NCBI GenBank assembly: GCA_001805965.1
Contig: MHHG01000006.1
Coordinates: 3,741-67,740, forward strand
Length of the DNA: 64,000 bases
Direction of reading: 5' to 3'
Origin: Omnitrophica WOR_2 bacterium RIFOXYA2_FULL_38_17
Lineage (GTDB): Bacteria > Omnitrophota > Gorgyraeia > Zapsychrales > Zapsychraceae
In this document: positions 8,795 to 58,054 of the stretch, piece after piece
Layout of the letters: each line of letters starts with the position of its first letter
Position numbering within the stretch: position 1 is the stretch's first letter
Translations under genes and position numbers: made by a program
Notes under the pieces: model-generated
What the model saw: the letters and a program-made list of their open reading frames with translations, nothing else
Told to the model about the DNA's origin: nothing
Database searches by the model: none

Positions 8795-11491
8795 ATGGAC
8801 AAGAAATATGTTTATTTCTTCGGAGGCGGGCAGTCCGAAGGTAAAGCATCAATGAAAGATCTCTTAGGGGGAAAGGGCGCTAATTTGGCGGAGATGGCTA
8901 GCATTGGCGTTCCGGTACCTCCGGGTTTTACAATCACAACTGAAGTCTGTGAATATTACTACGCAAACGGACTAAAATATCCTGAAGGATTGGATGCTGA
9001 AATTGATCTGAATATCACAAAGCTTGAACAGACAATGGGCGCTCAGCTAGGTGGCAAGGAGAACCCTCTTTTAGTATCTGTTAGAAGCGGCGCGGCAGTC
9101 TCTATGCCGGGTATGATGGATACAGTTCTTAACCTGGGTATCAATGATGAGGCAGTAGTTGCACTTGCTAAGAAGACAAATAATGAAAGAATGGCTTGGG
9201 ATTCATACAGAAGATTCATCAATATGTTCGGGGATGTTTGTATGGGTGTTGACCATCATGATTTTGAAAAAGAATTAACAAGAATTAAGAAAAAATACAA
9301 GAGGAACTTGGATACAGATTTAACTGCCAACGAATTAAAAGAAGTTGTTGACGCTTATAAGGCTGTATATAAGAAACAAATTGGCAAAGGGTTCCCTACC
9401 AATGCACGTGAACAATTAACACATGCTATTAATGCTGTTGTTAAATCTTGGAATATTCCCAGAGCTGTTACTTACAGAAGAATCAATAAAATGGTCGGAT
9501 ACAAAGGAACAGCTGTTAATGTGCAGGCAATGGCTTTTGGCAACATGGGAGATAGTTCCGGAACAGGTGTTGCTTTTACAAGAAATCCCGCAAATGGAGA
9601 TAATGAGTTTTATGGTGAGTATCTGATCAATGCGCAAGGTGAAGATGTTGTTGCAGGGATCAGGACGCCAGACCCTATTTCCACATTGAAGAAGAAAATG
9701 CCTGATATTTACAAGGAGCTTGATGATATTCGCCTTAAGCTAGAACAGCATTACAGAAATATGCAGGATGTTGAGTTTACCATTCAGGAAGGAAAGCTTT
9801 TTATGCTTCAAACAAGAAATGGTAAGCGTACAGGTTTGGCTGCAGTTAAGATCGCAGTTGATATGGTTCAGTCAAAAATGATCACGCCTCAAGAAGGATT
9901 GATGAGAATTGACGGAGACCAGTTAAACCAGCTTCTTTTCCCTATATTTGACCTTAAAGTTAAAGCTGCTGCAATTGCAAAAAAGCAATGTGTTGCTAAA
10001 GGCTTGCCAGCAGGGCCTGGTGCGGCAAGCGGGCAAGTTGTTTTTACAGCTGATGATGCTGTGAAATGGGCTGGAAAAGGTAAGAAAGTTATTTTGGTTA
10101 GGCAAGACACCTCTCCTGAGGATGTTAGCGGTATGTGGGCAGCTGAAGCTATCCTTACATCAACAGGTGGGATGACATCACATGCAGCTGTTGTTGCACG
10201 TGGCTGGGGCAAATGTTGTGTTGCAGGTTGCGGCGCACTCGACATCTCTTGTAGTAGTAAAACTATCAAAGTTGACGGAAGAACGATCAAAGAAGGTGAT
10301 TTTATATCTATTGACGGTACGACAGGCGAAGTTATTTTAGGCAGTATTCAAACTTCAGCATCTCCTGTAGTTTCTGGCATTGTTGACGGCAATAAAACTG
10401 CTCTGAAGCATCCTATTTGTAAAATGTTCTTGGAGGTTATGAAATGGGCTGACGCAGAGCGCAAGATAAATGTAAGAACGAACGCTGATTCTCCTAAAGA
10501 TGCTGCATGTGCACGTGCTTTTGGGGCAGAAGGCATTGGGCTTACGCGTACAGAGCATATGTTCTTTGAAGGAGATAGAATATGGGCTATTCGTGAGATG
10601 ATCCTTGCTAGTGATTTAGCTGGACGTGAAGCAGCTCTAAAGAAATTGCTTCCTTATCAAAGAAAAGACTTTGAAGGCATCTTTAAGGCTATGAATGGAT
10701 TCCCTGTAACTATTCGCTTACTTGATCCACCGTTACATGAGTTCTTGCCACATGATGCAGCAGGTCAAAAAGAGATGGCAAAGCGATTGAATACTACTCC
10801 TGCAAAGGTTAAGGCTAAAGTTGATTCTCTTCATGAATTCAATCCTATGTTAGGCCATAGGGGCTGCCGTCTTTCAATTACATTTCCTGAGATCTGTAAA
10901 ATGCAGACACGGGCGATAATTGAAGCTGCATGTAATGTTGCCAGCAAAGATGTAAAAGTTCTGCCTGAGATCATGATCCCTTTGATCGGAACAAAAGAGG
11001 AATATGATATTCTTGAAGTAATTGTGCGTGAAACAGCAGATGCGATTATCAAAGCCAAGCAATCAAAAATAAAATACATGGTTGGTACTATGATGGAAAT
11101 TCCTCGCGCAACATTAGTAGCTGATAAAGTTGCTGAAAAAGCGGAATTTTTCTCATTTGGTACTAATGACCTTACTCAAATGACATTGGGTTTTAGCCGT
11201 GATGATATCGGGACATTCTTGCCAGATTACATAGAAAAAAAGATCTTCATGGATGATCCTTTTGCGTCTATTGATCAAACAGGTGTCGGCGAGCTTGTCA
11301 AGATCGGTGTTGAGAGAGGAAGAGCAACACGTCCAAATCTTAAAATAGGTGTTTGCGGTGAGCACGGTGGCGATCCTGCATCGGTTAAGTTCTTTGCACG
11401 GGTTGGATTGAACTATGTCAGCTGTTCACCTTTTAGAGTTCCCATTGCAAGATTGGCTGCTGCCCAAGCTGCTTTGGAACAAAAGAAATAA
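8795..11491 (+). CDS. ppdK: pyruvate, phosphate dikinase
   Basis: 898 aa. N-terminal ATP-grasp region, central phospho-His domain (GGMTSHAAVVARGWG) and C-terminal PEP-utilizing TIM barrel (RLSITFPE, GTNDLTQ). Confidence 0.95.
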   Translation: MDKKYVYFFGGGQSEGKASMKDLLGGKGANLAEMASIGVPVPPGFTITTEVCEYYYANGLKYPEGLDAEIDLNITKLEQTMGAQLGGKENPLLVSVRSGAAVSMPGMMDTVLNLGINDEAVVALAKKTNNERMAWDSYRRFINMFGDVCMGVDHHDFEKELTRIKKKYKRNLDTDLTANELKEVVDAYKAVYKKQIGKGFPTNAREQLTHAINAVVKSWNIPRAVTYRRINKMVGYKGTAVNVQAMAFGNMGDSSGTGVAFTRNPANGDNEFYGEYLINAQGEDVVAGIRTPDPISTLKKKMPDIYKELDDIRLKLEQHYRNMQDVEFTIQEGKLFMLQTRNGKRTGLAAVKIAVDMVQSKMITPQEGLMRIDGDQLNQLLFPIFDLKVKAAAIAKKQCVAKGLPAGPGAASGQVVFTADDAVKWAGKGKKVILVRQDTSPEDVSGMWAAEAILTSTGGMTSHAAVVARGWGKCCVAGCGALDISCSSKTIKVDGRTIKEGDFISIDGTTGEVILGSIQTSASPVVSGIVDGNKTALKHPICKMFLEVMKWADAERKINVRTNADSPKDAACARAFGAEGIGLTRTEHMFFEGDRIWAIREMILASDLAGREAALKKLLPYQRKDFEGIFKAMNGFPVTIRLLDPPLHEFLPHDAAGQKEMAKRLNTTPAKVKAKVDSLHEFNPMLGHRGCRLSITFPEICKMQTRAIIEAACNVASKDVKVLPEIMIPLIGTKEEYDILEVIVRETADAIIKAKQSKIKYMVGTMMEIPRATLVADKVAEKAEFFSFGTNDLTQMTLGFSRDDIGTFLPDYIEKKIFMDDPFASIDQTGVGELVKIGVERGRATRPNLKIGVCGEHGGDPASVKFFARVGLNYVSCSPFRVPIARLAAAQAALEQKK

Positions 11492-28137: not shown

Positions 28138-29559
28138 ATGGCATCAGTTACTAGAAAATCCTTAGTAAGGGATCATTTTGATAGCATTGCCAGTGAATAT
28201 GATTATTGGAAGAAAAAGAACAGCTATTACTATGACACAATAATCGAATTTGTATCGAGGATCGTGCCAGAAGGCAGCACTGTTCTTGAGATAGGTTGTG
28301 CGACTGGCTCGATCCTTTCAGCGATAAAGCCTTCTAGAGGCGTCGGAGTGGATCTTAGCTCTGAAATGATCAAGATCGCTTCAGCAAAATATCCTGAATA
28401 TTCTTTCTACAGCCTACCTATAGAAAAACTGCAGCTTGATGAAAAGTTTGATTTCATTTTAATGATCGATGTTGTTGATCATGTTTATGATGTAATGGAT
28501 GTCTTTGAGCAAGTCCACAAGTTCTGCAAGCCCACAACAAGAATAGTTCTTACCACAATAAATCCCTGGTGGGACCCGATCCTTTCAGTAATGGAAAGGC
28601 TTGGTGCTAAGATGCCGGAAGGGCCCCATAATTTTATAGAAAAAGGGAATTTAAAAAGAATGGCTGAGGCGGAAGATATTTCAGTTAGTTATAGTGGGTA
28701 TCTTTTATTGTTCCCTAAAAAAATCCCAATACTGTCATTTCTGGCAAATTCAATTGGCGTCAGAACATGGCTTATAAATAAATTCTCTTGTGTTCAGTAT
28801 ATGATAATGCAGACATTACCAAAGAATACAAATAATCTTGACCTTGGGTGTTCTGTTATTATCCCGTGTCACAATGAACAAGACAATATTCAGGATGCTA
28901 TCAAGAGAGTTCCTCATATGGGAAAGGGCACTGAGATTATTGTCGTTGATGACGGGAGCACTGATTCAACGTCCAAAAAAGTGAAAGAAATGATGGAGTT
29001 CTATTCAAACTTAAATTTAATAAGTTACCCGAAGAACGAAGGAAAAGGCGCTGCGGTCAAGAAGGGATTTGAGGCAGCTACGAAAGAAGTGGTAATGGTA
29101 TTGGATGCAGATCTTTCAGTAAGTCCGGAAGAGCTGCCGAGGTTTTTTGAGCCATTAAATAAAGGTATCTGTCAGTTTGTCAATGGTACGAGAATGGTCT
29201 ACCCGATGGAACATCAGGCAATGAGGATATTGAATCTTTTGGGCAATAAGTTATTCGGATTTATCCTTTCATTTATTATTCAGCAGAATCTCACAGATAC
29301 TTTGTGCGGGACAAAAGCGCTTTATCGTAAAGATGTTGATAGAATTAAATGGGGCACGGATAAGTGGGGGGATTTTGATCTTCTATTCGGAGCAACAAGA
29401 ATAGGCAGTAAGATAATCGAGATACCGGTGCACTATATGTCCAGAAAGACAGGTGAGTCCAAAATGAGATCATTTAAACACGGGCTTCATTTGTTAAGGG
29501 CTTGTTTTTTAGGGTTTATAGAACTAGTATCAAGCCGGTCTGATGAAAAGTTCAAGTGA
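28138..29559 (+). CDS. bifunctional class I SAM-dependent methyltransferase / GT2 polyprenyl-phosphate sugar synthase (ArnC/DPM1/GtrB-like) fusion
   Basis: N-terminal half carries a methyltransferase motif I (VLEIGCATGSIL). C-terminal half is GT2 (CSVIIPCHNEQDNI; VVDDGSTDST; LDAD). It ends in a short hydrophobic segment. Confidence 0.75.
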   Translation: MASVTRKSLVRDHFDSIASEYDYWKKKNSYYYDTIIEFVSRIVPEGSTVLEIGCATGSILSAIKPSRGVGVDLSSEMIKIASAKYPEYSFYSLPIEKLQLDEKFDFILMIDVVDHVYDVMDVFEQVHKFCKPTTRIVLTTINPWWDPILSVMERLGAKMPEGPHNFIEKGNLKRMAEAEDISVSYSGYLLLFPKKIPILSFLANSIGVRTWLINKFSCVQYMIMQTLPKNTNNLDLGCSVIIPCHNEQDNIQDAIKRVPHMGKGTEIIVVDDGSTDSTSKKVKEMMEFYSNLNLISYPKNEGKGAAVKKGFEAATKEVVMVLDADLSVSPEELPRFFEPLNKGICQFVNGTRMVYPMEHQAMRILNLLGNKLFGFILSFIIQQNLTDTLCGTKALYRKDVDRIKWGTDKWGDFDLLFGATRIGSKIIEIPVHYMSRKTGESKMRSFKHGLHLLRACFLGFIELVSSRSDEKFK

Positions 29560-30923
29560 TTTATAAGTATTATTAAAATTGGAGCAAGCGGGTAGAAATG
29601 TAATATCAATCTTGAAAGAGTTGTTACTTTTTTATCGCCTGCTATCCATGGATAATTTGAAGTAAATAAGGCTATTGCCGAGTAAAGACCTATAAAAAGA
29701 AAAATGCTTACAAGAACAAGGAAAGCTTCCCTGTTCTTTTTTTTATAATCCCATAATAAAATACTAACACAAGCTATCATCCATACGATATTCCAGTTTC
29801 CAGATAAAAACATATTAAGATAGAACGCATGAATAACTTTTGGTAGCTTCAATAACTGTCCCAAGCCCAACACGAGGGCAGTCTTATCACAATCTGCAGT
29901 ACCATCAATAAGATTATTGGTAAAAAATTTATAAATATGAAAAGACAGGCAAATTGTAAGCGAGGGTATTAATAACGCCAGGGTATTTTTTATGTTCTCT
30001 TTAAAAGAAGTTTTATTAAAAAAACTGATCATTATAAACAGGATGATATAAATAACAATAAACGATGAGCCTTCAAGCTTAGTGAATGATGCAAATCCTG
30101 CAAAAAATGCTGCTGTTATAAGGAAAGAGGTTTTTTTGCTGGATGACCAAAGTATCAACATCATTATAGTTATGCAGTTGTAATACATTAAAAATAGGTC
30201 TCTATATGAAATGGTGGCATGATAAAAGGCCAGGTTAGATGATATTAAGAGTACACAGCCCAGCAATGACCATGTCGTATCCGTGTAGTTCTTTAGAAAT
30301 TTATATTGAACTATGAGGAAAGAAAGAAAAGTACAAGGGAAAATAATCTTTATGTATTGATCTGACCAGCGACCTATATTAATAGCTGTCCAAGTTTCAG
30401 CCAAAGAAGTGTGAAGCGGGTATGTCGGATGCGGCAGGATCTTAAGAGAGGGAATGCTCTTTTCATAAAAGAAAATCTTTGCTTTGAAAGCGATCGTAGC
30501 AAAAGCGTCCCATGAGTCAATAGGCCAGCTTATCGCCCCCCAGAATATCTGAAGTATATTTACAGTGATAAATATTATAAGAAAGGAGTTAAATGATATT
30601 AGCATTATGCTTGGTTTTGGTGTAGTGACAATATCCTTTGGAGTTTGGATATTTTCAGATAGCGGGGTGCTATGCTTTGCTATAAGTAGGAAAATAAAAG
30701 AAAAACAAACGAGAGGAAATGTAGTATTTGCAAAATTTAATTCTAACCCGGATATGCCAATAATAAACATCCATATTGTAAGTATGCCCATGCCCATTCC
30801 ATATGAGAGGGCCAGATTTAAAACAATATCAAGTTTGTTCTTTGTAAAAATAAAAGATATTAGGCAATAACCACAAAACACGGGTATTAGTACGCTTATT
30901 AATAATAAGATAGAAAGGGCCAT
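29487..30923 (-). CDS. GT-C fold polytopic membrane glycosyltransferase (PMT/ArnT-like, GT39/GT83 family)
   Basis: 478 aa with at least 11 TM helices and an architecture like 4-amino-4-deoxy-L-arabinose or protein mannosyltransferases. Its 3' end overlaps the 3' end of the GT2 fusion gene convergently by 73 nt. Confidence 0.55.
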   Translation of the reverse strand: MALSILLLISVLIPVFCGYCLISFIFTKNKLDIVLNLALSYGMGMGILTIWMFIIGISGLELNFANTTFPLVCFSFIFLLIAKHSTPLSENIQTPKDIVTTPKPSIMLISFNSFLIIFITVNILQIFWGAISWPIDSWDAFATIAFKAKIFFYEKSIPSLKILPHPTYPLHTSLAETWTAINIGRWSDQYIKIIFPCTFLSFLIVQYKFLKNYTDTTWSLLGCVLLISSNLAFYHATISYRDLFLMYYNCITIMMLILWSSSKKTSFLITAAFFAGFASFTKLEGSSFIVIYIILFIMISFFNKTSFKENIKNTLALLIPSLTICLSFHIYKFFTNNLIDGTADCDKTALVLGLGQLLKLPKVIHAFYLNMFLSGNWNIVWMIACVSILLWDYKKKNREAFLVLVSIFLFIGLYSAIALFTSNYPWIAGDKKVTTLSRLILHFYPLAPILIILINHLNFSSDRLDTSSINPKKQALNK

Positions 30924-30925
30924 TT

Positions 30926-31654
30926 TTATTTCCTCAGGGTTAAAATATATTCATTGTTCATGTTTACTAAGATCTCATCCTTATCATTTATATACTTTTG
31001 GGGATCATTAACAAAGTAAAGGACATTAACATCCTTTTTTGTTTTGTTATCAAACCCGATAGTTACTTCTGGATAAAGAAAGTATTTTATTATTCTGGAG
31101 TTGATAATGCACGGATCTTCATCGCATTTTAAGTCGGTTAAAAATTCTGCTTGATGCCGCCCGGACAATTTGTTTTTTGCTCTTATGGCAAATTCGTATT
31201 CTTCCTTAAAAAGCATTGATTTCTTATCGCTTTCAGAACGCTTTTTTGTTACTGCAAAATCCTTTGTAAGAACGTTGTATCTGCTAGATTGTTGTAGGAA
31301 AGTTAATAAGAAGAAACAGAAGAACATGAATAGCAGTATGGTCCTCTTTATTGATCGAGCAGTCGAAAAATTTTTTCCAATATAGTTTATTATTGCAAAA
31401 ATATAAAGGCTAGTTACTATTAAGACCATAAAGAAATATGTAAAGCTGTATATGTGGAAATCCTTGATATTTTTTAGTGTGAAGAGATCAGAATTCGGGG
31501 TGCACAATCTTTCCTTATGTGCCTCTATGACAGCAACATAAGGGATATCCAATATGCTTTTCAATATGAAGATATAAAGTAAGGAATATAATAGGAAACA
31601 GATCAATGTCTTTAAACAGAAAAGCGTGTCTTTTTTTATGGGTAGTTGAATCAT
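30926..31654 (-). CDS. 3-TM membrane protein with conserved C-terminal domain, paralog 1 of a tandem pair
   Basis: Shares GRHQAEF...YFLYPEV...FDNKT.KD...Y...DP and an identical 3-TM layout with the adjacent ORF. It starts 2 nt after the GT-C stop on the same strand, so it is the same operon. Confidence 0.5.
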   Translation of the reverse strand: MIQLPIKKDTLFCLKTLICFLLYSLLYIFILKSILDIPYVAVIEAHKERLCTPNSDLFTLKNIKDFHIYSFTYFFMVLIVTSLYIFAIINYIGKNFSTARSIKRTILLFMFFCFFLLTFLQQSSRYNVLTKDFAVTKKRSESDKKSMLFKEEYEFAIRAKNKLSGRHQAEFLTDLKCDEDPCIINSRIIKYFLYPEVTIGFDNKTKKDVNVLYFVNDPQKYINDKDEILVNMNNEYILTLRK

Positions 31655-31677: not shown

Positions 31678-32394
31678 TTATTGTTGATGTTCTGTTAAAA
31701 TGAAATTGTCTTTAATGTTAACTAAGGTCTTGTCATTTTCAGAAATAAAGCTTTTTGGGTCCTCTGAAAAATAAATAACCTTATGGTCTTTAGGCGTTTT
31801 ATTGTCAAATCTCAATGAGACTTCTGGATATAGAAAGTACGAAATCATTCGCAGTTTTTTCATGCCAGGATTAATGTTGCAATCAAGACTGGTAATAAAG
31901 TCCGCTTGATGCCTTCCTTTGACAGCCTTTTTTGACAGAAGTGAAAAATAGTATTCACCTTTGAAAAGAGCCAGATTCCTTTCGACCTCAGTTTTGCCTT
32001 TCATTGTTGAATAGTCCTTTATAGTCTGATTGCACCTGTTTAATTGCTGAAATAAAGCAATAGTAAAGAAATTAAGCATTATGAAGGAATAAATAATTTT
32101 TCGTATTGTTTTTATTAAAGAGTTATCCCCGAAGAACAGCCTTGTGATACTTATGGAGAATATTGTTGACGAAAAAATAAAGATAATCCAATAAAAATAA
32201 CTGTAAATGTTTATTCCTTTGATCTTTATAAGCTTAATGAGATTTTCTCTTCGGTGGATAAGGATCTTTCCTAAAATCTTAATAAGATCAAAGGGTGACA
32301 TTTTTAATAAAAAGGCAAGAAAACATATAGCTAGAACGGGATATATGACAATAGCTGCTATTAAAAGCTTATTGAATTTCGGATTATTGTTCAT
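31678..32394 (-). CDS. 3-TM membrane protein with conserved C-terminal domain, paralog 2 of a tandem pair
   Basis: Paralogous to 30926..31654 across the TM region and the C-terminal about 115 aa (GRHQADF...YFLYPEVSLRFDNKTPKD). It is the first gene of the minus-strand operon. Confidence 0.5.
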   Translation of the reverse strand: MNNNPKFNKLLIAAIVIYPVLAICFLAFLLKMSPFDLIKILGKILIHRRENLIKLIKIKGINIYSYFYWIIFIFSSTIFSISITRLFFGDNSLIKTIRKIIYSFIMLNFFTIALFQQLNRCNQTIKDYSTMKGKTEVERNLALFKGEYYFSLLSKKAVKGRHQADFITSLDCNINPGMKKLRMISYFLYPEVSLRFDNKTPKDHKVIYFSEDPKSFISENDKTLVNIKDNFILTEHQQ

Positions 32395-32530: not shown

Positions 32531-32559
32531 TTGACAAAGCGGCAGACATCCTACATACT
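32531..32559 (+). promoter_or_regulatory. candidate sigma70 promoter for the multi-receiver gene (TTGACA-17-CATACT), within a divergent intergenic region
   Basis: TTGACA at 32531-32536, 17-nt spacer, CATACT (4/6 to consensus). An AAGGAGA RBS lies at 32614-32620 and an in-frame ATG at 32627. Confidence 0.35.
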
Positions 32560-32602: not shown

Positions 32603-35600
32603 ATGATGATCTCAAGGAGATTGTTTATGTATGTTTATTCAGGGAAAAGACGTTTTTGCGCAATTAATCGTCTTTTTATTGCATTTATATCTTTTTCGCT
32701 GTTATTTAGCTCAATGATCACAGGACCTGCTTTTGCTCAAAGCATTGGAATGCTTAACCTGCCGGTTCCTGGCACTATGGTCGTTCAATCACAGGCATTT
32801 GTCCCGGTGCTGCTTAAAGGTATGACAATTTATCCGGATGACCCGCTGAAATTTGACTTTATTGTCGATAGTGGGAACACGGATTTTGATCAAGACGAGA
32901 TACAGAAAGAATCAGAGAAGCTTGTGAAATATTTTCTGGCTTCAATGACCGTTCCCAAGGATGACCTCTGGGTCAATCTTTCTCCTTATGAAGGGGACCG
33001 CATAATAACGGATGAGCTGGGGAAAACTGAATTGGGGAGAGATCTTTTAGCTCAGGATTATATTTTAAAGCAATTAACAGCATCTTTGATGTATCCGGAA
33101 GATGAATTGGGCAGGGAATTCTGGGAAAGAATATATGAAAAAGTTCAAGATCAGTTTGGAACATCGGATATTCCCGTCAATACTTTCAACAAAGTTTGGA
33201 TCCTCCCGGAAAGTGCTACTGTTTACGAAAACGGGCATACTGTTTTTGTTGTAGAGTCAAAATTAAAGGTAATGTTGGACAGCGATTATCAGGCGATGAT
33301 GCATAGTGCTGATTCCGTAGGGGATTCCCTTGCTGGTGCCCGTGATCAAAATGGGATTAATGTAAACGGACAGGTACAAGACCTGTCCTTACAGAAATAT
33401 TCAAATATAGTCCGAGAGATACTCATTCCCGAGATTGAAAAAGAAGTTAATGAGGGAAAGAATTTTGCTCCTCTTCGTCAGATATATAATTCTTTGATAC
33501 TTGCAAAATGGTACAAAGAAACGATCAAAGATTCTTTATTGTCCTCAATTTATATTGATCAGAACAAGACCGCGGGCGTTGAGCTTGATGATACAGCGTT
33601 TAAAGAAGAGATATACCAAAGGTATCTTAAGGCATATAAAAAAGGCGTTTTTGATTATATAAAGGAAGATTATGATGCTTTAACTGATCAGGTTGTTGAT
33701 AGAAAATATTTTTCAGGCGGCTTTAGGGATACCTCAATGCTGATAGACAAGACAAGCAACAAAGCAATTATCGGAAGGTCAGTTACTGGTAAGACATTCA
33801 GTTTTGAAATGGGCATTAAGCCGGAAATCACCAGGCCGGATGTTGCTATGTTATCTGGCAAGAGGATATTAGTAGTAGACGGTGATGATACGTATTCAGA
33901 TTTGATGGAAGATATTCTTGAAAGGGAAAACGCTGTTGTTGTAACTGCTTCAGATGGGCAGCAGGCCTTGGTTATTTTAAAAGCAGACAGAAAATTTGAT
34001 CTGGTTTTAGCTGACCTGGATATGCCTAATATGAGTGGTGATCAGTTAGCAAGAATGGTAAATGAATTGGCTTTTGGGATACCTGTTGTCCTTCAAACCT
34101 GGAATGGGTCAAAAATACCGCAACTTTCTGAAAGCCTTGCAGGCATTGCTAGAGTTGTGGATAAAGGCTTGTCATTTGACCTCGGCAAATTTTACAAGGA
34201 AATTGAAAGTTCAGTTACTCAAGAAAATGCTTTGAAAAAAGATGCAGCGATGCTCTCGGGGAAAAGGATATTAGTTGTTGATGACAGTGATTTCATGCTA
34301 AAGGTCATGAAGAGCCTTTTAGAAGGACAGAATGCTGAAGTTGTAACGGCAGCTGATGGCAAAGATGCTTTAGATATACTTAAGGACGATTCAAGATTTG
34401 ACTTAATAGTTTCAGATTTTAGGATGCCTATAGTTAAGGGAGATGAACTAGCTCAGGTTGTAAAGGATTCAGGGTATGGCATCCCAGTGCTGATTCAAAC
34501 AACAAATACTGAGGAGGTGGTTTCTGGCTTGTCGAAAAGATTATCGGGAATTGCCACGGTAATTGATAAAGGCGACCTCGGGAATTTGTATAAAGGGATC
34601 AATGGTTTAATCTCACCTGAGAGAAAATCCGGAGCAGATAGGTCCATGCTCTCTGGAAAAAGGATCTTGGTAGTTGATGATTATGATTCAATGAGAGAAG
34701 GTATGGAGATACTTTTTCGAATGAGGGGTGCTGTTGTTGTCACTGCTTCAAATGGACAGGAAGCATTAGATATATTGGCAAAAGACCAGAAATTCGATTT
34801 GATAATGACAGACTATCAAATGCCTGTAATGGATGGGGTAGAATTGGCCCAAAAAGTAAGTGAAACTAAACTTGGGATACCTGTTCTCATGCAAACCGCG
34901 AAAGATGAGGAAATCCCTAGATTAACAGAGGAGCTTTCAGGTGTCGCAAATGTAATAAAAAAAGGTCTAGATAATAAAATTATTGTTGAGGCTGTTGCTA
35001 ATTCAATAGAAGGTACCATTCCAGCAAAGAAAGACAGCTCTATGTTAGCTGGAAAGAGAGTATTGGTTGTTGATGATTATCCCGGTATTGCGAGAATGAT
35101 CCAAAGGGTATTAGGCTTAAAAAATATTGCAGTTGTAACTGCTAATAATGGACAGGAAGCATTGGATATATTGGCAAAAGACCAGAAATTCGATTTGATA
35201 ATGACAGACTATCAAATGCCTGTGATGGATGGGGTAGAATTAGCCAAAAAAGTAAGTGAATCTAAATTTGGGATACCTGTTCTTATGCAAACTGCAAGAG
35301 AGGAGGAAATACCTCGATTAAAAGAAGATCTTTCAGGTGTTGCAACAATAATCAAAAAAGGCTTTGGCGTTGATGCGCTTGTTGAGGCAATCGCTGGATC
35401 AATTAAGAGCGTGGCTTCTTTAAACAAAGAGGGCTCTATGCTTAGTGAAAAGGCAAAAGTTCAGTTATCACAAATGCATGTAACTGAAGATGATGAAGTC
35501 CAGCTTAGAAGATTATCCGAAAGTGACTGGTATGAACTTATTAAACAGATAAATCAATCTAGGGTAGTAAATCCGGTCTCTTATGATGTGACAAGTGATA

Positions 35601-36154
35601 TTTTCGGTATTTATGTTGACGAGGAGCAATCGGGCTCAATGACTCAAGCTGCAATAAGAAAGATCTTGGATGCGTTAGATGATTCGTTCAACAGGCCGAT
35701 AAATCTTGTGGTTTTTACTGATTTTTCTTTAGAGGTTGGATTGGTTTATGAGGGGCTGCATAACGTATTGTTTGTTTCAACGCCTGCATTTTTAGTTGCT
35801 ATGAGCTCTGGGGAAAAATATTCTCCTGTGATCGTGTCAGGAGATATGTTGAGTAATAATAGCGATGAAGATTTGTTGGTTATTAAAGAACAACTTCAAT
35901 CAGCTACTTCTGATAATCCTCAAGCAGGAGATGTCGGTGGTATTGATATGAACAGTATTGACTTTGAAAGGACTGGCGAGGGCGTAAAAATTGAATTTTC
36001 ACCTAGCGCTTTTGACCCGGTGATAATAAATATGGGGATAGAGGGATTTTCTCCGGTGATTATTAATTTAACACCGTTAAATAGTGTGTTTCCACTTCTT
36101 GGTTTTGATTCAAGAGATGAAGATCCCTTAGAAATATCATTGGGGAGGAATTAG
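32603..36154 (+). CDS. large protein with Sec-type signal peptide, about 380-aa N-terminal domain, four tandem receiver (REC) domains and about 250-aa C-terminal domain; no output domain recognised
   Basis: Four repeats of the CheY-like receiver fold, each with an acidic pocket (VVDGDD, VVDDSD, VVDDYD, VVDDYP), a phospho-acceptor Asp (ADLDMP, SDFRMP, TDYQMP x2) and a conserved Lys (VVDKG, VIDKG, VIKKG, IIKKG). N-terminus is LFIAFISFSLLFSSMITGPAFA|QS. The true start is probably the in-frame ATG at 32627, which follows an RBS. Confidence 0.8.
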   Translation: MMISRRLFMYVYSGKRRFCAINRLFIAFISFSLLFSSMITGPAFAQSIGMLNLPVPGTMVVQSQAFVPVLLKGMTIYPDDPLKFDFIVDSGNTDFDQDEIQKESEKLVKYFLASMTVPKDDLWVNLSPYEGDRIITDELGKTELGRDLLAQDYILKQLTASLMYPEDELGREFWERIYEKVQDQFGTSDIPVNTFNKVWILPESATVYENGHTVFVVESKLKVMLDSDYQAMMHSADSVGDSLAGARDQNGINVNGQVQDLSLQKYSNIVREILIPEIEKEVNEGKNFAPLRQIYNSLILAKWYKETIKDSLLSSIYIDQNKTAGVELDDTAFKEEIYQRYLKAYKKGVFDYIKEDYDALTDQVVDRKYFSGGFRDTSMLIDKTSNKAIIGRSVTGKTFSFEMGIKPEITRPDVAMLSGKRILVVDGDDTYSDLMEDILERENAVVVTASDGQQALVILKADRKFDLVLADLDMPNMSGDQLARMVNELAFGIPVVLQTWNGSKIPQLSESLAGIARVVDKGLSFDLGKFYKEIESSVTQENALKKDAAMLSGKRILVVDDSDFMLKVMKSLLEGQNAEVVTAADGKDALDILKDDSRFDLIVSDFRMPIVKGDELAQVVKDSGYGIPVLIQTTNTEEVVSGLSKRLSGIATVIDKGDLGNLYKGINGLISPERKSGADRSMLSGKRILVVDDYDSMREGMEILFRMRGAVVVTASNGQEALDILAKDQKFDLIMTDYQMPVMDGVELAQKVSETKLGIPVLMQTAKDEEIPRLTEELSGVANVIKKGLDNKIIVEAVANSIEGTIPAKKDSSMLAGKRVLVVDDYPGIARMIQRVLGLKNIAVVTANNGQEALDILAKDQKFDLIMTDYQMPVMDGVELAKKVSESKFGIPVLMQTAREEEIPRLKEDLSGVATIIKKGFGVDALVEAIAGSIKSVASLNKEGSMLSEKAKVQLSQMHVTEDDEVQLRRLSESDWYELIKQINQSRVVNPVSYDVTSDIFGIYVDEEQSGSMTQAAIRKILDALDDSFNRPINLVVFTDFSLEVGLVYEGLHNVLFVSTPAFLVAMSSGEKYSPVIVSGDMLSNNSDEDLLVIKEQLQSATSDNPQAGDVGGIDMNSIDFERTGEGVKIEFSPSAFDPVIINMGIEGFSPVIINLTPLNSVFPLLGFDSRDEDPLEISLGRN
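34757..35362 (+). repeat. recent tandem duplication inside the multi-REC gene (REC3 vs REC4, about 90% nt identity, 396-nt period)
   Basis: 34757-34966 and 35153-35362 are near-identical at the nucleotide level. The antisense ORFs at 34816..35019 and 35212..35427 in the six-frame track are also duplicates. Confidence 0.8.
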
Positions 36155-42385: not shown

Positions 42386-42820
42386 ATGGAATTAGATATT
42401 ATACAAATTCAAAAGATCATACCTCACAGATTTCCATTTTTGCTTATTGATAAAGTCACTGAATTAGTTCCCAATGAAAAATTGATCGCTATCAAGAACG
42501 TTACAGTTAATGAGCATCATTTTGTGGGACATTTTCCTAATGAAAAGGTCATGCCTGGAGTTTTGATAATTGAAGCAATGGCTCAGGCAGGTTGCATATA
42601 TTTTTATTATAGCAAGAATATGCAGGGTAAAGACCTTGTTTATTATCTTGCAAAAGTCACTTGTAAATTTCGTGCGCCAGTAGTGCCTGGCGATCAGTTG
42701 CGTATTGAGGTAACGACTATTAAAATGCTTCCCACTGCTGGATTTTTAAGAACCCGTGCTTATGTTAAAGATAATCTTGTAGCTGAGGCTGAGATAGGTT
42801 TCGGCATAAAGGAAGTATAA
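42386..42820 (+). CDS. fabZ: 3-hydroxyacyl-[ACP] dehydratase FabZ
   Basis: Hotdog fold with the HHFVGHFP...PGVLIIEAMAQ catalytic motif. 144 aa. Confidence 0.9.
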   Translation: MELDIIQIQKIIPHRFPFLLIDKVTELVPNEKLIAIKNVTVNEHHFVGHFPNEKVMPGVLIIEAMAQAGCIYFYYSKNMQGKDLVYYLAKVTCKFRAPVVPGDQLRIEVTTIKMLPTAGFLRTRAYVKDNLVAEAEIGFGIKEV

Positions 42821-43206
42821 TGTTCTCGAACAAAATGAATAAGAGTGATAATCATATGCATAAAGAGCGCAGGAGCATAGAAAGAGTCCAATACTATAAG
42901 CCGGTTCAGTTAAGCTTTGGTATACAGGTTTCTGTAACTGGCAAAATAAGGGATATTTCAGAGAAGAGCGCATTTATTGATATGAAGAGTTCTCTTTATG
43001 TTGAAAAAGACGATGAGTTTGATTTTAAGATATTTTTATCCAGAGATGATGCTGATTTAACAGTTGAAGGCAAGGCAAAGATATCTCGTGTAGCAACAGA
43101 GGGTATTGCGATCTATTTTACGTATTTAAGCAAGGATTCCCAGGAAAAGCTATTGGATCTTATCGATGAGCTGAGGCCAACGCAAAGAAGGCCGGATTAT
43201 TATTGA
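42820..43206 (+). CDS. PilZ-domain (c-di-GMP-binding-type) protein
   Basis: RxxxR motif (ERRSIER) and a DxSxxG-like motif (RDISEKSAF). 128 aa. Its start overlaps the fabZ stop. Confidence 0.6.
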   Translation: MFSNKMNKSDNHMHKERRSIERVQYYKPVQLSFGIQVSVTGKIRDISEKSAFIDMKSSLYVEKDDEFDFKIFLSRDDADLTVEGKAKISRVATEGIAIYFTYLSKDSQEKLLDLIDELRPTQRRPDYY

Positions 43207-54460: not shown

Positions 54461-55370
54461 AAAGCCTTTAAATAGCTCTGTTATGGCTATTGGGGTTTTT
54501 GACGGGGTCCATAAAGGGCACCAGGCGCTTATTAAAAAAGCTGTTTCAAAGGCTAAGCGGCTGGGCACAAAATCAGTTGTAATGACATTTTCACCGCACC
54601 CGGTTTCTGTTCTTCATCCCAAATTCGAATTATCCCTTATCACTTCCCTTGACCATAAGATAAAGCTTATTGAGGCTTTGGATGTTGATATTTTAATTGT
54701 TATTAAGTTTACGAAGCTCTTCGCAGTCCAGTCACCTGACACATTTATTAAAAAATATATTGCTAATAAGCTTAACTCAAAAGAGGTATATGTTGGTGAT
54801 GATTTTCGCTTTGGGAGCGGAAGGACCGGGGAAATTGATTCATTTAAAGCCTTGGCCAGGTCTTATGGATTTAATGTTAATGTTATAAAACTGATCAAAA
54901 ATGATAATGAAAAAGTAAGCAGCTCGGTTATTCGAAATTTGATCAAGAGCGGAGATCTAAATAAGGCTAAAAGGCTTCTTGGCCGTTATGTTGCAATAGA
55001 AGGCAAGGTCGTCAAGGGTGATGCTAGAGGCAGAAAGCTCGGGTTCCCGACAGCAAATATAATTCCGGATAAAGAGATAATACCTCCTCTTGGGGTTTAC
55101 GCGGCTATTATAAGTATTGATGGCAAGCGTTACAGGGGGGTGACAAATGTGGGGTTTTGTCCTGTCTTTAGAAGGAATGCAGAGAATGTAACAGTGGAGA
55201 CCTTTATTTTTGATTTTAATAAGAATATCTATGGAAAAGTCATAGTGATCGCTTTTGTTAAAAGAATACGTGATGAATTGAATTTCAAAACACAGGATAA
55301 ACTTATTGAGCAAATGAAGAAAGATGAATTTAAGGCAAGAAGGATTCTATCAGGGGAGGCATCAATATGA
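54429..55370 (+). CDS. ribF: bifunctional riboflavin kinase / FMN adenylyltransferase
   Basis: N-terminal FAD synthetase domain (GVFDGVHKGHQ) plus a C-terminal riboflavin kinase domain. 313 aa. Confidence 0.85.
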   Translation: MRIIYGIGQIKKPLNSSVMAIGVFDGVHKGHQALIKKAVSKAKRLGTKSVVMTFSPHPVSVLHPKFELSLITSLDHKIKLIEALDVDILIVIKFTKLFAVQSPDTFIKKYIANKLNSKEVYVGDDFRFGSGRTGEIDSFKALARSYGFNVNVIKLIKNDNEKVSSSVIRNLIKSGDLNKAKRLLGRYVAIEGKVVKGDARGRKLGFPTANIIPDKEIIPPLGVYAAIISIDGKRYRGVTNVGFCPVFRRNAENVTVETFIFDFNKNIYGKVIVIAFVKRIRDELNFKTQDKLIEQMKKDEFKARRILSGEASI

Positions 55371-58054
55371 GGCTTAAAACAAGGAATATTGGGATCAGTA
55401 TTTTAGTGTTATTCTTGCTGGATCTAATAAGCTGCAATCTCTCTTTTGCAAAAAACAATGTTCCAAGTACTTATAATGTGCTTGTCATGCAGTCCTATCA
55501 CAGTACCTTGACATGGTCTAAGTCAATAGAACAAGGAATAGAAACATATTTTGAGCATTCAGGTCAGGGCGTTAACTTGCAAATTGAATATATGGATTCG
55601 AAGAGAGTTTGGGATGAGACCTACAAAAAGGTGCTTTATGATATTTATAAATATAAGTATAAGCCAAATGAGTTTAATCTTATCATAAGCGTCGATAACA
55701 ATGCATTTGATTTTCTGGTTGAATATAGGGATAAGCTTTTTGGGAGCATTCCTGTTGTTTTCTGCGGAGTAAATGATTTTCAGGATTCAATGTTAAATAA
55801 TGTGGGGCTTTTTACAGGTATTGTTGAAGATATTAGCTTTAAAGAGACAATTGATGCTGCGCTTTCTCTTCATCCTGAAACAAACAATATAGTTATTTAT
55901 GGGATTGATTCAATAACATATATGGCAAATAAAGCTGCTATCAGGAGAATTGAAGGCGATTATAAGGATAGTGTGAAGTTCACTTATGTAGAAAATGCAA
56001 ATATGGAAATGATAGAAAAACATGCGCATGCCCTAAAGAACGGTAATCTTATCTTGATCATATCCTCCATGAAAAATGCTGCTGGAGTGATTCTTTCTTT
56101 TGAGGACTATTGTTACAGGACAAGCCATGCGGCAAAGGTCCCTGTTTATAGCTTTTGGGATTTTCATGTCGGGCATGGCATAGTCGGAGGAAAAGTTATT
56201 AGCGGAAGGTCGCAGGGAGAAACAGCTGCAAAAATGGCTTTAACTATTCTTAAAGGCGCAGATCCCAGGATGATCCCAGTTATTAAGACCAGTCCTAATG
56301 AATATTATTTTGATCTTCAACAGTTAGAGAGATTTCATATAGATGTTTCCAGCCTGCCTAAGGGAAGTAATGTTGTTAACAAGAAAGTCGGGGTCTATGA
56401 AAAATATTATAATCTGATATTTAAGGTTCTAGGCGTTTTTGTTTTTCTTTTTATTTTGATCTTGCTGTTGATCGTGGATATTGAAGGAAGAAAAAGAACA
56501 GAAATTGCTTTAAGGGCAAGTGAGAAAAAGTTCAGGTCGATCATAGAATCATCAAGCGACTGGATCTGGGAAGTAGATGGCGATGGTGTATATACTTATG
56601 TAAGCCCGATGGTCAAGGATATTCTTGGATATGAGGTTGACGAAGTTCTGGGAAAAACCGTTTTTGATTTTATGAACGATGAAGAGGCGGAAAGGGTGTT
56701 CGAGGTTTTTGATCATATTATTGATAAAAAAGCCAATATGGAATCTGTTGAGAGCACTTGTATCCATAAAAAGGGTCACGAAGTGGTTCTCGAGACGAAC
56801 GGGGTACCGATCCTTGATAACGAAGGACAACTGCGAGGGTATAGAGGTGTTGACCGGGATATTACTAAGCGAAAAAAAGCGGAAAATGAGCTTAAGGATA
56901 GTGAGGAGAAGTTCCATAAGATATTTTATACGGGATCTGCGGCAATGATCATCAGTGATTTTAACTCCGGAGAAATAATCGATGTTAATAATATGTTCCT
57001 TGATAGTATGGGGTATAAAAAGGAAGAGGTCATTGGTAGAACTTCAAAGGCATTGGGGCTTTTTTCGGATTATTCTGACAGGGAAAAAATGAGGAATATG
57101 ATGATCGATAACGGCAGTGTCAGGAATTTTGAGATCAAGGTTAGAACAAAGGGAAATGAAGAACGTTTAGGCCTGTTTTCTGCGGATTTTATTAACATAC
57201 AGGACAAGAAAGCATTATTGTCGATAGTCACTGATATTACTGAATTAAAGAGGTCACAGGAACTTATGATCCAGTCTGAAAAAATGTTGTCTGTGGGCGG
57301 CCTTGCCGCAGGCATAGCACACGAGATCAACAATCCCCTGGCGGGGATCCTGCAGAACATGCAGCTGATAAGGAATCGTTTGAAAAAAGAAAAAGCGGCT
57401 AATGTGAACATTGCCAACGAATTTGGCTTGAACCTCCATGCCCTTGATGAGTATATGCAGCGAAGAGATATTGAAATGATGATGGATCTTATAGTTGACT
57501 CTGGGAAGCGCGCTGCAAAAATTGTTAACAATATATTAAGTTTTAGCCGTAAGTCGGAAGAGGACTTTGCATATAACAATATTGCAAAGCTTTTAGATGA
57601 ATCTGTTGAGCTTGCAAGCAGCGATTATGATCTTAAGAAAAAATATGATTTTAAAAATATAAAGATCATTCGTGAGTGCAAAGATGAGGGTTGCATGATC
57701 CCTTGTGAATTCAGTCAGATACAGCAGGTATTCTTTAATATCTTAAGAAATGGCGCAGAGGCGATGAAATCTACAAAGGACCCTAAATTCATCATTCGGA
57801 TGTATCATAAAAACAATATGTTTGTTATAGAGTTTGAGGATAATGGCCCTGGACTGGAAGAAAGTGTTGCAAAAAGAGTGTTTGAGCCTTTTTTTACAAC
57901 AAAGGCTGTCGGTGAAGGGACCGGCTTAGGCTTGTCTGTCTCATATTTTATTATAGTGGAGAAACATGGCGGGAAGTTGGAGGTTGAATCTGTTTTAGGG
58001 AGAGGAGCTAAATTTATCGTTTCTCTGCCTAAGAATCACGAGAAAATTTCGTAA
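55367..58054 (+). CDS. sensor histidine kinase with periplasmic substrate-binding-protein-like sensor domain, TM, tandem PAS, HisKA and HATPase_c
   Basis: Signal/TM at the N-terminus. About 320-aa periplasmic domain. TM around aa 355-375. Two PAS domains. H-box AHEINNPL. N/G1/G2 boxes (ILRNGAEAM; DNGPG; GTGLGLS). Overlaps the ribF stop by 4 nt. Confidence 0.85.
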   Translation: MRLKTRNIGISILVLFLLDLISCNLSFAKNNVPSTYNVLVMQSYHSTLTWSKSIEQGIETYFEHSGQGVNLQIEYMDSKRVWDETYKKVLYDIYKYKYKPNEFNLIISVDNNAFDFLVEYRDKLFGSIPVVFCGVNDFQDSMLNNVGLFTGIVEDISFKETIDAALSLHPETNNIVIYGIDSITYMANKAAIRRIEGDYKDSVKFTYVENANMEMIEKHAHALKNGNLILIISSMKNAAGVILSFEDYCYRTSHAAKVPVYSFWDFHVGHGIVGGKVISGRSQGETAAKMALTILKGADPRMIPVIKTSPNEYYFDLQQLERFHIDVSSLPKGSNVVNKKVGVYEKYYNLIFKVLGVFVFLFILILLLIVDIEGRKRTEIALRASEKKFRSIIESSSDWIWEVDGDGVYTYVSPMVKDILGYEVDEVLGKTVFDFMNDEEAERVFEVFDHIIDKKANMESVESTCIHKKGHEVVLETNGVPILDNEGQLRGYRGVDRDITKRKKAENELKDSEEKFHKIFYTGSAAMIISDFNSGEIIDVNNMFLDSMGYKKEEVIGRTSKALGLFSDYSDREKMRNMMIDNGSVRNFEIKVRTKGNEERLGLFSADFINIQDKKALLSIVTDITELKRSQELMIQSEKMLSVGGLAAGIAHEINNPLAGILQNMQLIRNRLKKEKAANVNIANEFGLNLHALDEYMQRRDIEMMMDLIVDSGKRAAKIVNNILSFSRKSEEDFAYNNIAKLLDESVELASSDYDLKKKYDFKNIKIIRECKDEGCMIPCEFSQIQQVFFNILRNGAEAMKSTKDPKFIIRMYHKNNMFVIEFEDNGPGLEESVAKRVFEPFFTTKAVGEGTGLGLSVSYFIIVEKHGGKLEVESVLGRGAKFIVSLPKNHEKIS

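Follow-up and report, generated by a model that had tools for sequence, protein, structure and literature searches.

Four tandem receiver domains as probable cargo of a very large modular protein family in Omnitrophota

An open reading frame (ORF) of 1,183 amino acids (aa), at 32603..36154 on the + strand of a 64,000-nucleotide stretch from Omnitrophica WOR_2 bacterium RIFOXYA2_FULL_38_17 (contig MHHG01000006.1; the whole stretch is called the window below), encodes four consecutive CheY-like receiver domains (REC1 to REC4) behind a predicted signal peptide, which raises the question of what receivers would do outside the cytoplasm. The initial annotation, made from the sequence, proposed an autonomous phosphate sink or multi-input scaffold connected with a divergent GT-C glycosylation operon. 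Our comparison of sequences points to another answer, to which we assign a probability of roughly 0.55: the gene, a member of a very large Omnitrophota-labelled modular family, would encode a Sec-exported carrier whose cargo is, in this case, four receivers and an orphan domain. On this view the protein is no classical response regulator that works as partner of the histidine kinase of the window.

Receiver domains and the regions that flank them

The Pfam scan that the initial annotation had called for confirmed four Response_reg (PF00072) stretches (230.6 bits, cut-off 30.2), and the nearest PDB matches of these stretches are the receivers of PhoP and Spo0F. Alignment to CheY and Spo0F revealed that the acceptor Asp, the Thr and the Lys are kept in all four receivers. 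The residue set is D-D-D-T-K in REC2, REC3 and REC4, whereas it is D-G-D-T-K in REC1, with Gly at the position of CheY D13 (the second acidic residue). The earlier claim that each receiver keeps the acidic pocket, the acceptor Asp and the Lys is thus right for Asp and Lys throughout and for the pocket of REC2 to REC4, and wrong for the pocket of REC1. Judged by these residues, three receivers are predicted to be catalytically complete, and REC1 to be without the second acidic residue. Apart from REC3 and REC4 (65%), the receiver pairs show 42-50% identity.

In the full-length Pfam scan, no HisKA, HATPase, Hpt, HTH or other DNA-binding, GGDEF, EAL or CheB/CheR domain was found. The protein has neither the output domain nor the HisKA/HATPase/Hpt module by which a classical response regulator or phosphorelay protein is recognized, and the flanks match no Pfam or NCBIfam family, in agreement with the first description of the protein as one without an output domain. 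A tblastn search with REC3 detected no other receivers or paralogs in the window, which holds one family member. A phosphate-sink role would be possible for the receiver cargo itself. The histidine kinase of the window (55367-58054, + strand) is composed of ABC-type substrate-binding-protein-like, PAS, HisKA and HATPase_c domains.

The flanks, first estimated at about 380 and 250 aa, measure 415 aa on the N-terminal side and 238 aa on the C-terminal side. The former consists of the signal peptide, an N-domain and a linker element of 42 aa, and the latter of an orphan domain of 155 aa followed by a C-module of about 70-80 aa. The N-domain opens with LNLPVPG (aa 51-57), just after the A↓Q site (the arrow marks signal peptide cleavage), and ends in YFSGG. 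It matched nothing in Pfam or NCBIfam (E up to 10, with sub-threshold noise only) or in PDB sequence profiles. A structure model of the N-domain (predicted local distance difference test score, pLDDT, 75.7; predicted template modelling score, pTM, 0.77) was used for a fold search, which returned nothing significant from PDB (best E = 0.29, template modelling score 0.11) or BFVD; NheA, SmhA and CorA, the top insignificant fold hits, were not taken as evidence. For the C-module, whose GGID lies at aa 1112 and whose PVIINL lies at aa 1151, there was no match in Pfam or NCBIfam (aa 946-1183, E up to 10) and none among PDB sequences. The orphan domain has no Pfam or NCBIfam match either, and a homolog search with it returned nothing, not even the domain itself, which makes this a weak negative; its interpretation as a degenerate receiver was ruled out by hhalign (probability 0.7%). 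The possibility raised at the outset, that the ends belong to a known output family, is therefore not borne out by the Pfam and NCBIfam searches or, for the N-domain, by the PDB-sequence search.

The carrier family, its junction motif and its leader

The two ends had been left unassigned in the initial annotation. Rather than parts specific to a regulator, they are the N-domain and the C-module of a family with an exchanged middle. Searching with aa 9-415 retrieved over 1,500 proteins that are 50-72% identical; almost all carry an Omnitrophota label, and they differ in what lies downstream of the shared region. The exhaustive search with an N-domain profile matched no fewer than 8,393 clusters (50% identity), of which 6,772 reach E <= 1e-30. 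Among the matches listed, the N-domain begins within the first 64 residues in 150 of 150, and the lengths range from 420 to 5,312 aa. The restriction of the family to Omnitrophota is taken from record labels. The deposited counterpart of our protein (P0121, described below) matches the N-domain profile with 616.9 bits (E = 1.8e-180) and shares its invariant columns. All features that define the family are present here, namely the A↓Q leader before LNLPxPG, the N-domain, the C-module and the motif at module borders. Because the ends are modules of a family in which the middle is freely exchanged, the receivers are to be regarded as cargo in a carrier and not as the core of a dedicated phospho-scaffold.

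There is a diverse pattern of cargo among the N-domain homologs. It includes aldose epimerase, HEAT, ankyrin, TPR, NDK, adenylate kinase, LpxC, UDP-glucose pyrophosphorylase (UDPGP), radical SAM, YdcF, DprA, Maf, ThiG, NUDIX, HAD, GGDEF, hexokinase, PFK, PGM-type mutase, glutamate dehydrogenase, HATPase_c and HTH domains, together with methyltransferases, kinases and sugar enzymes. When 41 complete members were sampled without bias, the greater part of the cargo had no Pfam match, and receivers were the commonest recognizable cargo (3/41). Receivers occur in 16 of 435 sampled members, and the full catalytic residue set is kept in 18 of the 24 distinct receiver cargo domains across the family. 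The four-receiver array was found only in this protein and in its ortholog P0122 (1,461 aa), which was also the only match with receivers in the full-length search; the others match about the first third only. A stand-alone, complete pyruvate phosphate dikinase without carrier modules is encoded in the window (8795-11491, + strand), while PPDK_N and PEP-utilizer domains are carrier cargo in other genomes, so free and carrier-fused enzyme types coexist in the phylum.

A scan of reference genomes yielded at least 595 pattern matches, of which 588 were confirmed. All 79 loci that were kept come from metagenome-assembled genomes labelled Omnitrophota or from mislabelled bins, with several loci per genome, and in about 20 or more of them two or three family genes stand in same-strand tandem. 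No recurrent non-family neighbour was detected across the 79 loci, the best cluster occurring in 6/79. The weakly recurrent neighbours (L022, L028 and others) encode a 402-aa response regulator (6/79 loci) and a 518-aa membrane protein (5/79 loci), and their recurrence may be due to common descent of these genomes, without any functional tie. One family paralog, P0123, carries aldose-1-epimerase cargo and an N-domain 70% identical to ours, and is probably encoded on contig MHHI01000006.1 (81,745 bp; L084) of GCA_001805995.1, so that this genome may have at least two family members within about 80 kb.

A C-module of about 70 aa (GGID...GF-x-PVII...LLG) lies at the extreme C-terminus of 113 retrieved family proteins, whatever their cargo, and practically all complete members end in it. 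ORFs with only a C-module in the fetched loci adjoin an ORF with only an N-domain or are cut by the locus end; this position fits split or truncated family genes, so that N-domain and C-module appear to be coupled. Split genes, whose N-domain ORF adjoins or overlaps a separate ORF for the C-module, were seen at L003:2110-5679, L033:225-3550 and L073:5902-9595, which suggests frameshifts, pseudogenes or sequencing errors in long genes.

The module borders of our protein are marked by six copies of D/E-x-[AS]-M-L. The arrangement FSGG-x-D-x-[AS]-M-L-[IV]-x-K at the end of the N-domain is also present in P0122, P0150 and P0288. In the 435 sampled proteins, D-x-A-M-hydrophobic was observed 280 times, compared with 50.6 in shuffles, and its rate per 10,000 residues is 4.95 in family members as against 0.21 in those ORFs of the same loci that are outside the family (about 24-fold). 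Up to 13 copies occur in one protein, always between modules; in some members a copy lies inside the start of the C-module. Met occupies its position 200 times, any other residue at most 36 times, and the next position is L, V, M, I or T, while the positions flanking the motif are unconserved. By these statistics, D-x-A-M-hydrophobic is a genuine short linear motif.

The leader of our protein has an n-region with four Lys/Arg and an h-region of about 16 aa, followed by AFA↓QS at aa 43-47. Its hydrophobic segment (aa 17-45) is the only one in the protein, and no transmembrane (TM) helix follows. Among 366 family leaders, the A↓Q site was found in 323 (88%), about 7 residues ahead of the LxxPG that opens the N-domain; residue -3 is S, A, G or V in 82% of the A↓Q-bearing leaders, the median uncharged core (h-region) is 16 residues long, and the n-regions hold 3-5 Lys/Arg. 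In sequence terms the family leader is a textbook Sec/signal peptidase I signal, apparently conserved by selection. A twin-arginine translocation (Tat) signal was rejected, as [ST]-R-R-x-F-[LIV] fits none of the 366 leaders and RR occurs in just 16%; the n-region of our protein reads KRRF, with Phe one position early for the Tat consensus. No internal TM-like segment is present in 37 of the 41 complete members. The canonical Sec leader without a later TM helix that was first noticed in this protein is thus upheld by its single hydrophobic segment and by the family-wide conservation of the leader. From these two features the receivers are predicted to lie beyond the cytoplasmic membrane, a placement that was rightly called unusual.

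Reading frame and genomic setting

The ORF is real, and the features located in it and just upstream are listed in Table 1. Its first ATG has no ribosome-binding site, and the true start is likely the ATG at codon 9 (32627-32629), giving a protein of 1,175 aa. A downstream start that deletes the leader was ruled out, because the best start (codon 9, with AGGAG) keeps the hydrophobic segment; either start retains it, and the signal-peptide-bearing ORF described at first stands. P0121, a deposited hypothetical protein of Omnitrophica WOR_2 bacterium GWF2_38_59, has 1,175 aa and begins at codon 9. Its identity to the ORF product was reported as 100%, yet at least one residue differs: at 35846-35848 (aa 1082 of the ORF) the window has Met (VSGDMLSNN) and P0121 has Ile (VSGDILSNN). 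The 100% is therefore a rounded figure, and strain-level variants exist. An exact look-up of the 1,183-aa translation found no public record, since public annotations begin at codon 9. The gene is thus already deposited as a hypothetical protein, and what is new here is the definition of the family, the junction motif and the rereading of the receivers as cargo. Upstream of the ORF, sigma-70-like sites are no more numerous than expected from shuffles.

Table 1. Positions in the window of the sequence features of the four-receiver gene
Feature	Position	Strand	Remark
Sigma-70-like promoter match TTGACA-17-CATACT	32531..32559	+	10/12 matches; weak evidence only
Shine-Dalgarno-like AGGAG	32615..32619	+	direct sequence reading; 7 nt before likely start ATG
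Likely start (codon 9) and Sec-type signal peptide, MYVYSGKRRFCAINRLFIAFISFSLLFSSMITGPAFA↓QS	32627..32737	+	site AFA↓Q; leader conserved in family
Family N-domain (aa 46-373, LNLPVPG ... WVNLSPYE ... KYFSGG)	32738..33721	+	family profile; matches no family or fold
Linker element (aa 374-415), modelled as small beta unit	33722..33847	+	between DTSML and DVAML motifs
Junction motif 1, DTSML	33728..33742	+	brackets linker element on N-side
Junction motif 2, DVAML	33839..33853	+	N-side/REC1 border
REC1 (aa 416-549)	33848..34249	+	acceptor Asp471; second acidic-pocket residue is Gly
Junction motif 3, DAAML	34241..34255	+	REC1/REC2 border
REC2 (aa 550-681)	34250..34645	+	acceptor Asp605; D-D-D-T-K complete
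Junction motif 4, DRSML	34637..34651	+	REC2/REC3 border
REC3 (aa 682-813)	34646..35041	+	acceptor Asp737; D-D-D-T-K complete
Junction motif 5, DSSML	35033..35047	+	REC3/REC4 border
REC4 (aa 814-945)	35042..35437	+	acceptor Asp869; D-D-D-T-K complete; 65% identical to REC3
Junction motif 6, degenerate EGSML	35429..35443	+	REC4/orphan-domain border
Orphan 155-aa cargo domain (aa 946-1100)	35438..35902	+	common only to ortholog P0122 (52% identity)
Family C-module (GGID ... PVIINL...LLGF core) and short tail	35903..36151	+	homologous to 113 family C-termini

Counted from the first ATG, 208 bp separate the gene from its divergent neighbour; counted from the likely start, the separation is 232 bp. 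The initial annotation proposed co-regulation with the GT-C genes through a shared divergent promoter, a proposal that finds no support in the only close ortholog, P0122, whose gene is placed syntenically in a relative. Two same-strand genes, one for a polysaccharide lyase and one for a 609-aa protein, are inserted there between P0122 and the GT-C side, and conservation of the shared divergent promoter is thereby ruled out. P0122 also has an extra methyltransferase module between REC3 and REC4, which indicates that cargo changes by whole modules. The neighbourhood is otherwise syntenic in close relatives. It comprises a sub-threshold PMT_2-like membrane protein, two further membrane proteins, LigT, CinA, RibBA and RibH, and core chromosomal genes (PPDK, PNPase, FtsK, RodZ, MiaB, LigA, FtsI, MurE) fill the remainder of the window.

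The "GT-C" gene (29487-30923, - strand) has a PMT_2 match of 23.1 bits against a threshold of 26.1, and it overlaps by 73 nt the 3' end of a convergent methyltransferase-GT2 fusion gene (28138-29559). Between the GT-C-like gene and the four-receiver gene lie side by side the genes of two paralogous membrane proteins, each of about 240 aa and without Pfam match (30926-31654 and 31678-32394, both - strand). In the syntenic relative there are three of them (171, 246 and 257 aa), and the copy number of this small family thus varies. A small PilZ-domain gene lies at about 42820-43206 on the + strand (mapped from L081:20194-20580), about 6.7 kb downstream and not adjacent; pilZ homologs are found immediately downstream of giant Omnitrophota genes (West-Roberts et al., 10.1101/2023.11.21.568195). 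The GC skew is positive in every 2-kb stretch of the window (0.07-0.33) and 34 of 38 ORFs of at least 200 aa are on the + strand, which would fit one replichore with a strong leading-strand gene bias.

Possible role and competing explanations

If the protein is an exported carrier, its leader would send the whole chain across the cytoplasmic membrane by the Sec route, with cleavage at AFA↓Q, as the conserved leader suggests. The N-domain and the C-module would serve sorting, anchoring or delivery and not signalling output, a role suggested by their invariant position and their independence of the cargo. Its place at the module borders and its short linear character suggest that the junction motif may be a recognition or processing site able to separate the modules. 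The receivers would accept phosphate wherever the carrier brings them. Since they keep the phosphorylation chemistry and the known phosphodonors (histidine kinases and acetyl phosphate) are cytoplasmic, this would most plausibly be the cytoplasm of another cell or an unrecognized compartment; we know of no periplasmic phosphodonor.

Several points weigh against this proposal. Export of this protein is predicted from sequence statistics, and cleavage at the junction motif is something that we infer purely from sequence. No protease, secretion system or other conserved partner was found beside the family genes of the 79 loci or in the window. The cargo repertoire is mostly nucleotide-dependent and of cytoplasmic type, and would suit the cytoplasm more naturally than the periplasm or the outside. 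In a few family fragments a TM helix directly follows the N-domain, which would place the cargo in the cytoplasm. The acidic pocket of REC1 is incomplete. The full-length AF2 model is weak in the C-terminal third, so that the fold of the C-module and a contact between N- and C-terminal parts have no confident model.

These points bring up a membrane-tethered cytoplasmic scaffold, in which an uncleaved or unconventional leader would leave the N-domain, the receivers and the C-module on the cytoplasmic face; there the receivers would draw phosphate from histidine kinases of the same cell and act as a sink or multi-input hub. Such a scaffold would agree with the cytoplasm-type, nucleotide-dependent cargo, with the conserved catalytic residues of the receivers, with the helix after the N-domain in some members and with the reading of 46% of giant Omnitrophota proteins as TM-anchored cytoplasmic (10.64898/2026.06.07.730766). 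We nevertheless hold it to be unlikely, because the 3-5 Lys/Arg of the n-region predict, by the positive-inside rule, an N-terminus inside and the rest outside, because A↓Q with small residues at -3/-1 in 88% of leaders and a median h-region of 16 aa resemble a cleaved signal and not an anchor, and because no second TM segment is present here to return the chain inside. A far smaller chance is left for genes within the gene, in which the Met of the motif would be an internal start codon and free cytoplasmic receivers would be made from the same mRNA. The strong preference for Met and the stand-alone-like start of each receiver (M-L-S/A-G-K-R-I-L-V-V-D-D) would fit, but Shine-Dalgarno-like sequences precede only 5.8% of motif Mets, compared with 12% of other internal Mets and 26% of gene starts. 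This lack of enrichment makes internal starts very unlikely; the six sites of this gene have no consistent Shine-Dalgarno sequence, and the conserved D-x-A upstream and hydrophobic residue downstream form a signature at the protein level.

The autonomous periplasmic sink or scaffold of the initial annotation, regulating or co-regulated with the divergent GT-C operon, accounts for four receivers with a signal peptide and no output domain, and could draw on the 208-232 bp intergenic region shared with the GT-C-side genes in a neighbourhood that is syntenic in close relatives. It is very unlikely all the same, for the flanks are carrier modules of thousands of receiver-free proteins, the ortholog locus has two extra same-strand genes where the divergent promoter would be, no phosphodonor is known in the periplasm, and the neighbours LigT, CinA, RibBA and RibH are housekeeping genes. 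Quite improbable, too, is a surface coat or adhesin, in which the carrier modules would fix the chain to the surface of the cell, where the cargo, receivers included, would be displayed as binding modules and not as catalysts. A signal peptide without TM helix and the frequency of protein-binding repeats (ankyrin, HEAT, TPR) among the cargo agree with it, as do the surface or attachment roles proposed for giant Omnitrophota proteins (West-Roberts et al., 10.1101/2023.11.21.568195). The full phosphorylation set in 18/24 receiver cargo domains would be unexpected for structural use, however, and many cargo types are metabolic enzymes.

The exported carrier, which we favour over these alternatives, was also compared with known systems. 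The closest described kind is the giant multi-domain proteins of Omnitrophota, named "Archaeovorins" (West-Roberts et al. 2023, 10.1101/2023.11.21.568195) or placed in a "multi-enzyme metabolic cluster" class (10.64898/2026.06.07.730766). Receivers occur in 105 of 916 long Omnitrophota proteins (10.64898/2026.06.07.730766), and proteolytic processing has been proposed for the giants (10.1101/2023.11.21.568195). In term searches of these two preprints (10.1101/2023.11.21.568195 and 10.64898/2026.06.07.730766), neither the conserved N-domain nor the C-module nor the D-x-A-M motif was found to be described, and literature searches yielded no account of this family; the SpeD fusions of PMC10407285 are unrelated to it. 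Like this family, the giants belong to the same phylum and have signal peptides (or TM helices) and unannotated N-terminal regions, and they share a Pfam repertoire of methyltransferase, HATPase_c, radical SAM, NUDIX, GGDEF, HAD, PGM, starch synthase, hexokinase and HEAT/TPR domains. They have at least 10,000 aa and mostly many TM helices, whereas our protein, with 1,175 aa, is 10 to 100 times shorter and has none, and so falls outside the archaeovorin definition.

The logic of the family is akin to that of MARTX toxins, type IX secretion system (T9SS) cargo and polymorphic effector families, whose defining features were not found here by Pfam and NCBIfam searches. In MARTX toxins, conserved N- and C-terminal regions surround recombining unrelated effectors, which are released by cleavage at inter-domain linkers. 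The likeness lies in conserved ends that flank an array of unrelated, exchanged domains; MARTX toxins differ in type I secretion without a Sec leader, glycine-rich repeat arms and a cysteine protease of their own, and the full-length Pfam scan found neither such arms nor a cysteine protease domain in our protein. T9SS cargo resembles the family in its Sec signal peptide, diverse domains and module of about 70-100 aa at the extreme C-terminus, and differs in having no shared N-domain. No T9SS sorting domain was found in Pfam or NCBIfam on aa 946-1183 (E up to 10), and we are not aware of any description of T9SS from Omnitrophota. Multi-receiver response regulators that serve as phosphate sinks or hubs, among them FrzZ-type dual CheY proteins and CheY-type sinks, likewise have tandem receivers with intact acceptors and no output domain, but they work in the cytoplasm and lack both a signal peptide and carrier modules. 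Unlike theirs, the receivers here represent just one of dozens of exchangeable cargo types.

Omnitrophota have ultra-small cells, and a host-dependent or predatory life is predicted for them (PMC10066038); their giant proteins have been proposed as secreted effectors, possibly cleaved into pieces (10.1101/2023.11.21.568195). This lifestyle and this proposal make delivery by exported carriers plausible, though unproven. In the most far-reaching form of the idea, which is unlikely, a phylum-wide platform of Sec-exported carrier polyproteins, built from a head domain, a tail module and D-x-A-M sites for cleavage or recognition, would bring enzymes and signalling domains of cytoplasmic type from the producer into host or prey cells, and the four receivers, once released there, would be a decoy phosphate sink draining the two-component signalling of the victim.

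The carrier interpretation has practical consequences for annotation. To call this gene a "response regulator" would mislead, and the N-domain profile could annotate at least 8,393 clusters of "hypothetical" proteins. As a candidate site of cleavage or recognition, the junction motif is testable in existing metaproteomes, and the family offers a handle on the puzzle of the giant-protein preprints, that is, signal-peptide-bearing Omnitrophota proteins with cytoplasmic enzyme domains. If the family is indeed exported, thousands of Omnitrophota proteins place kinases, nucleotide and sugar enzymes and receivers outside the cytoplasm of the producer, which would mean either that a phylum whose members are suspected predators or parasites has an effector-delivery system of a new kind, or that there is an unrecognized energised compartment.

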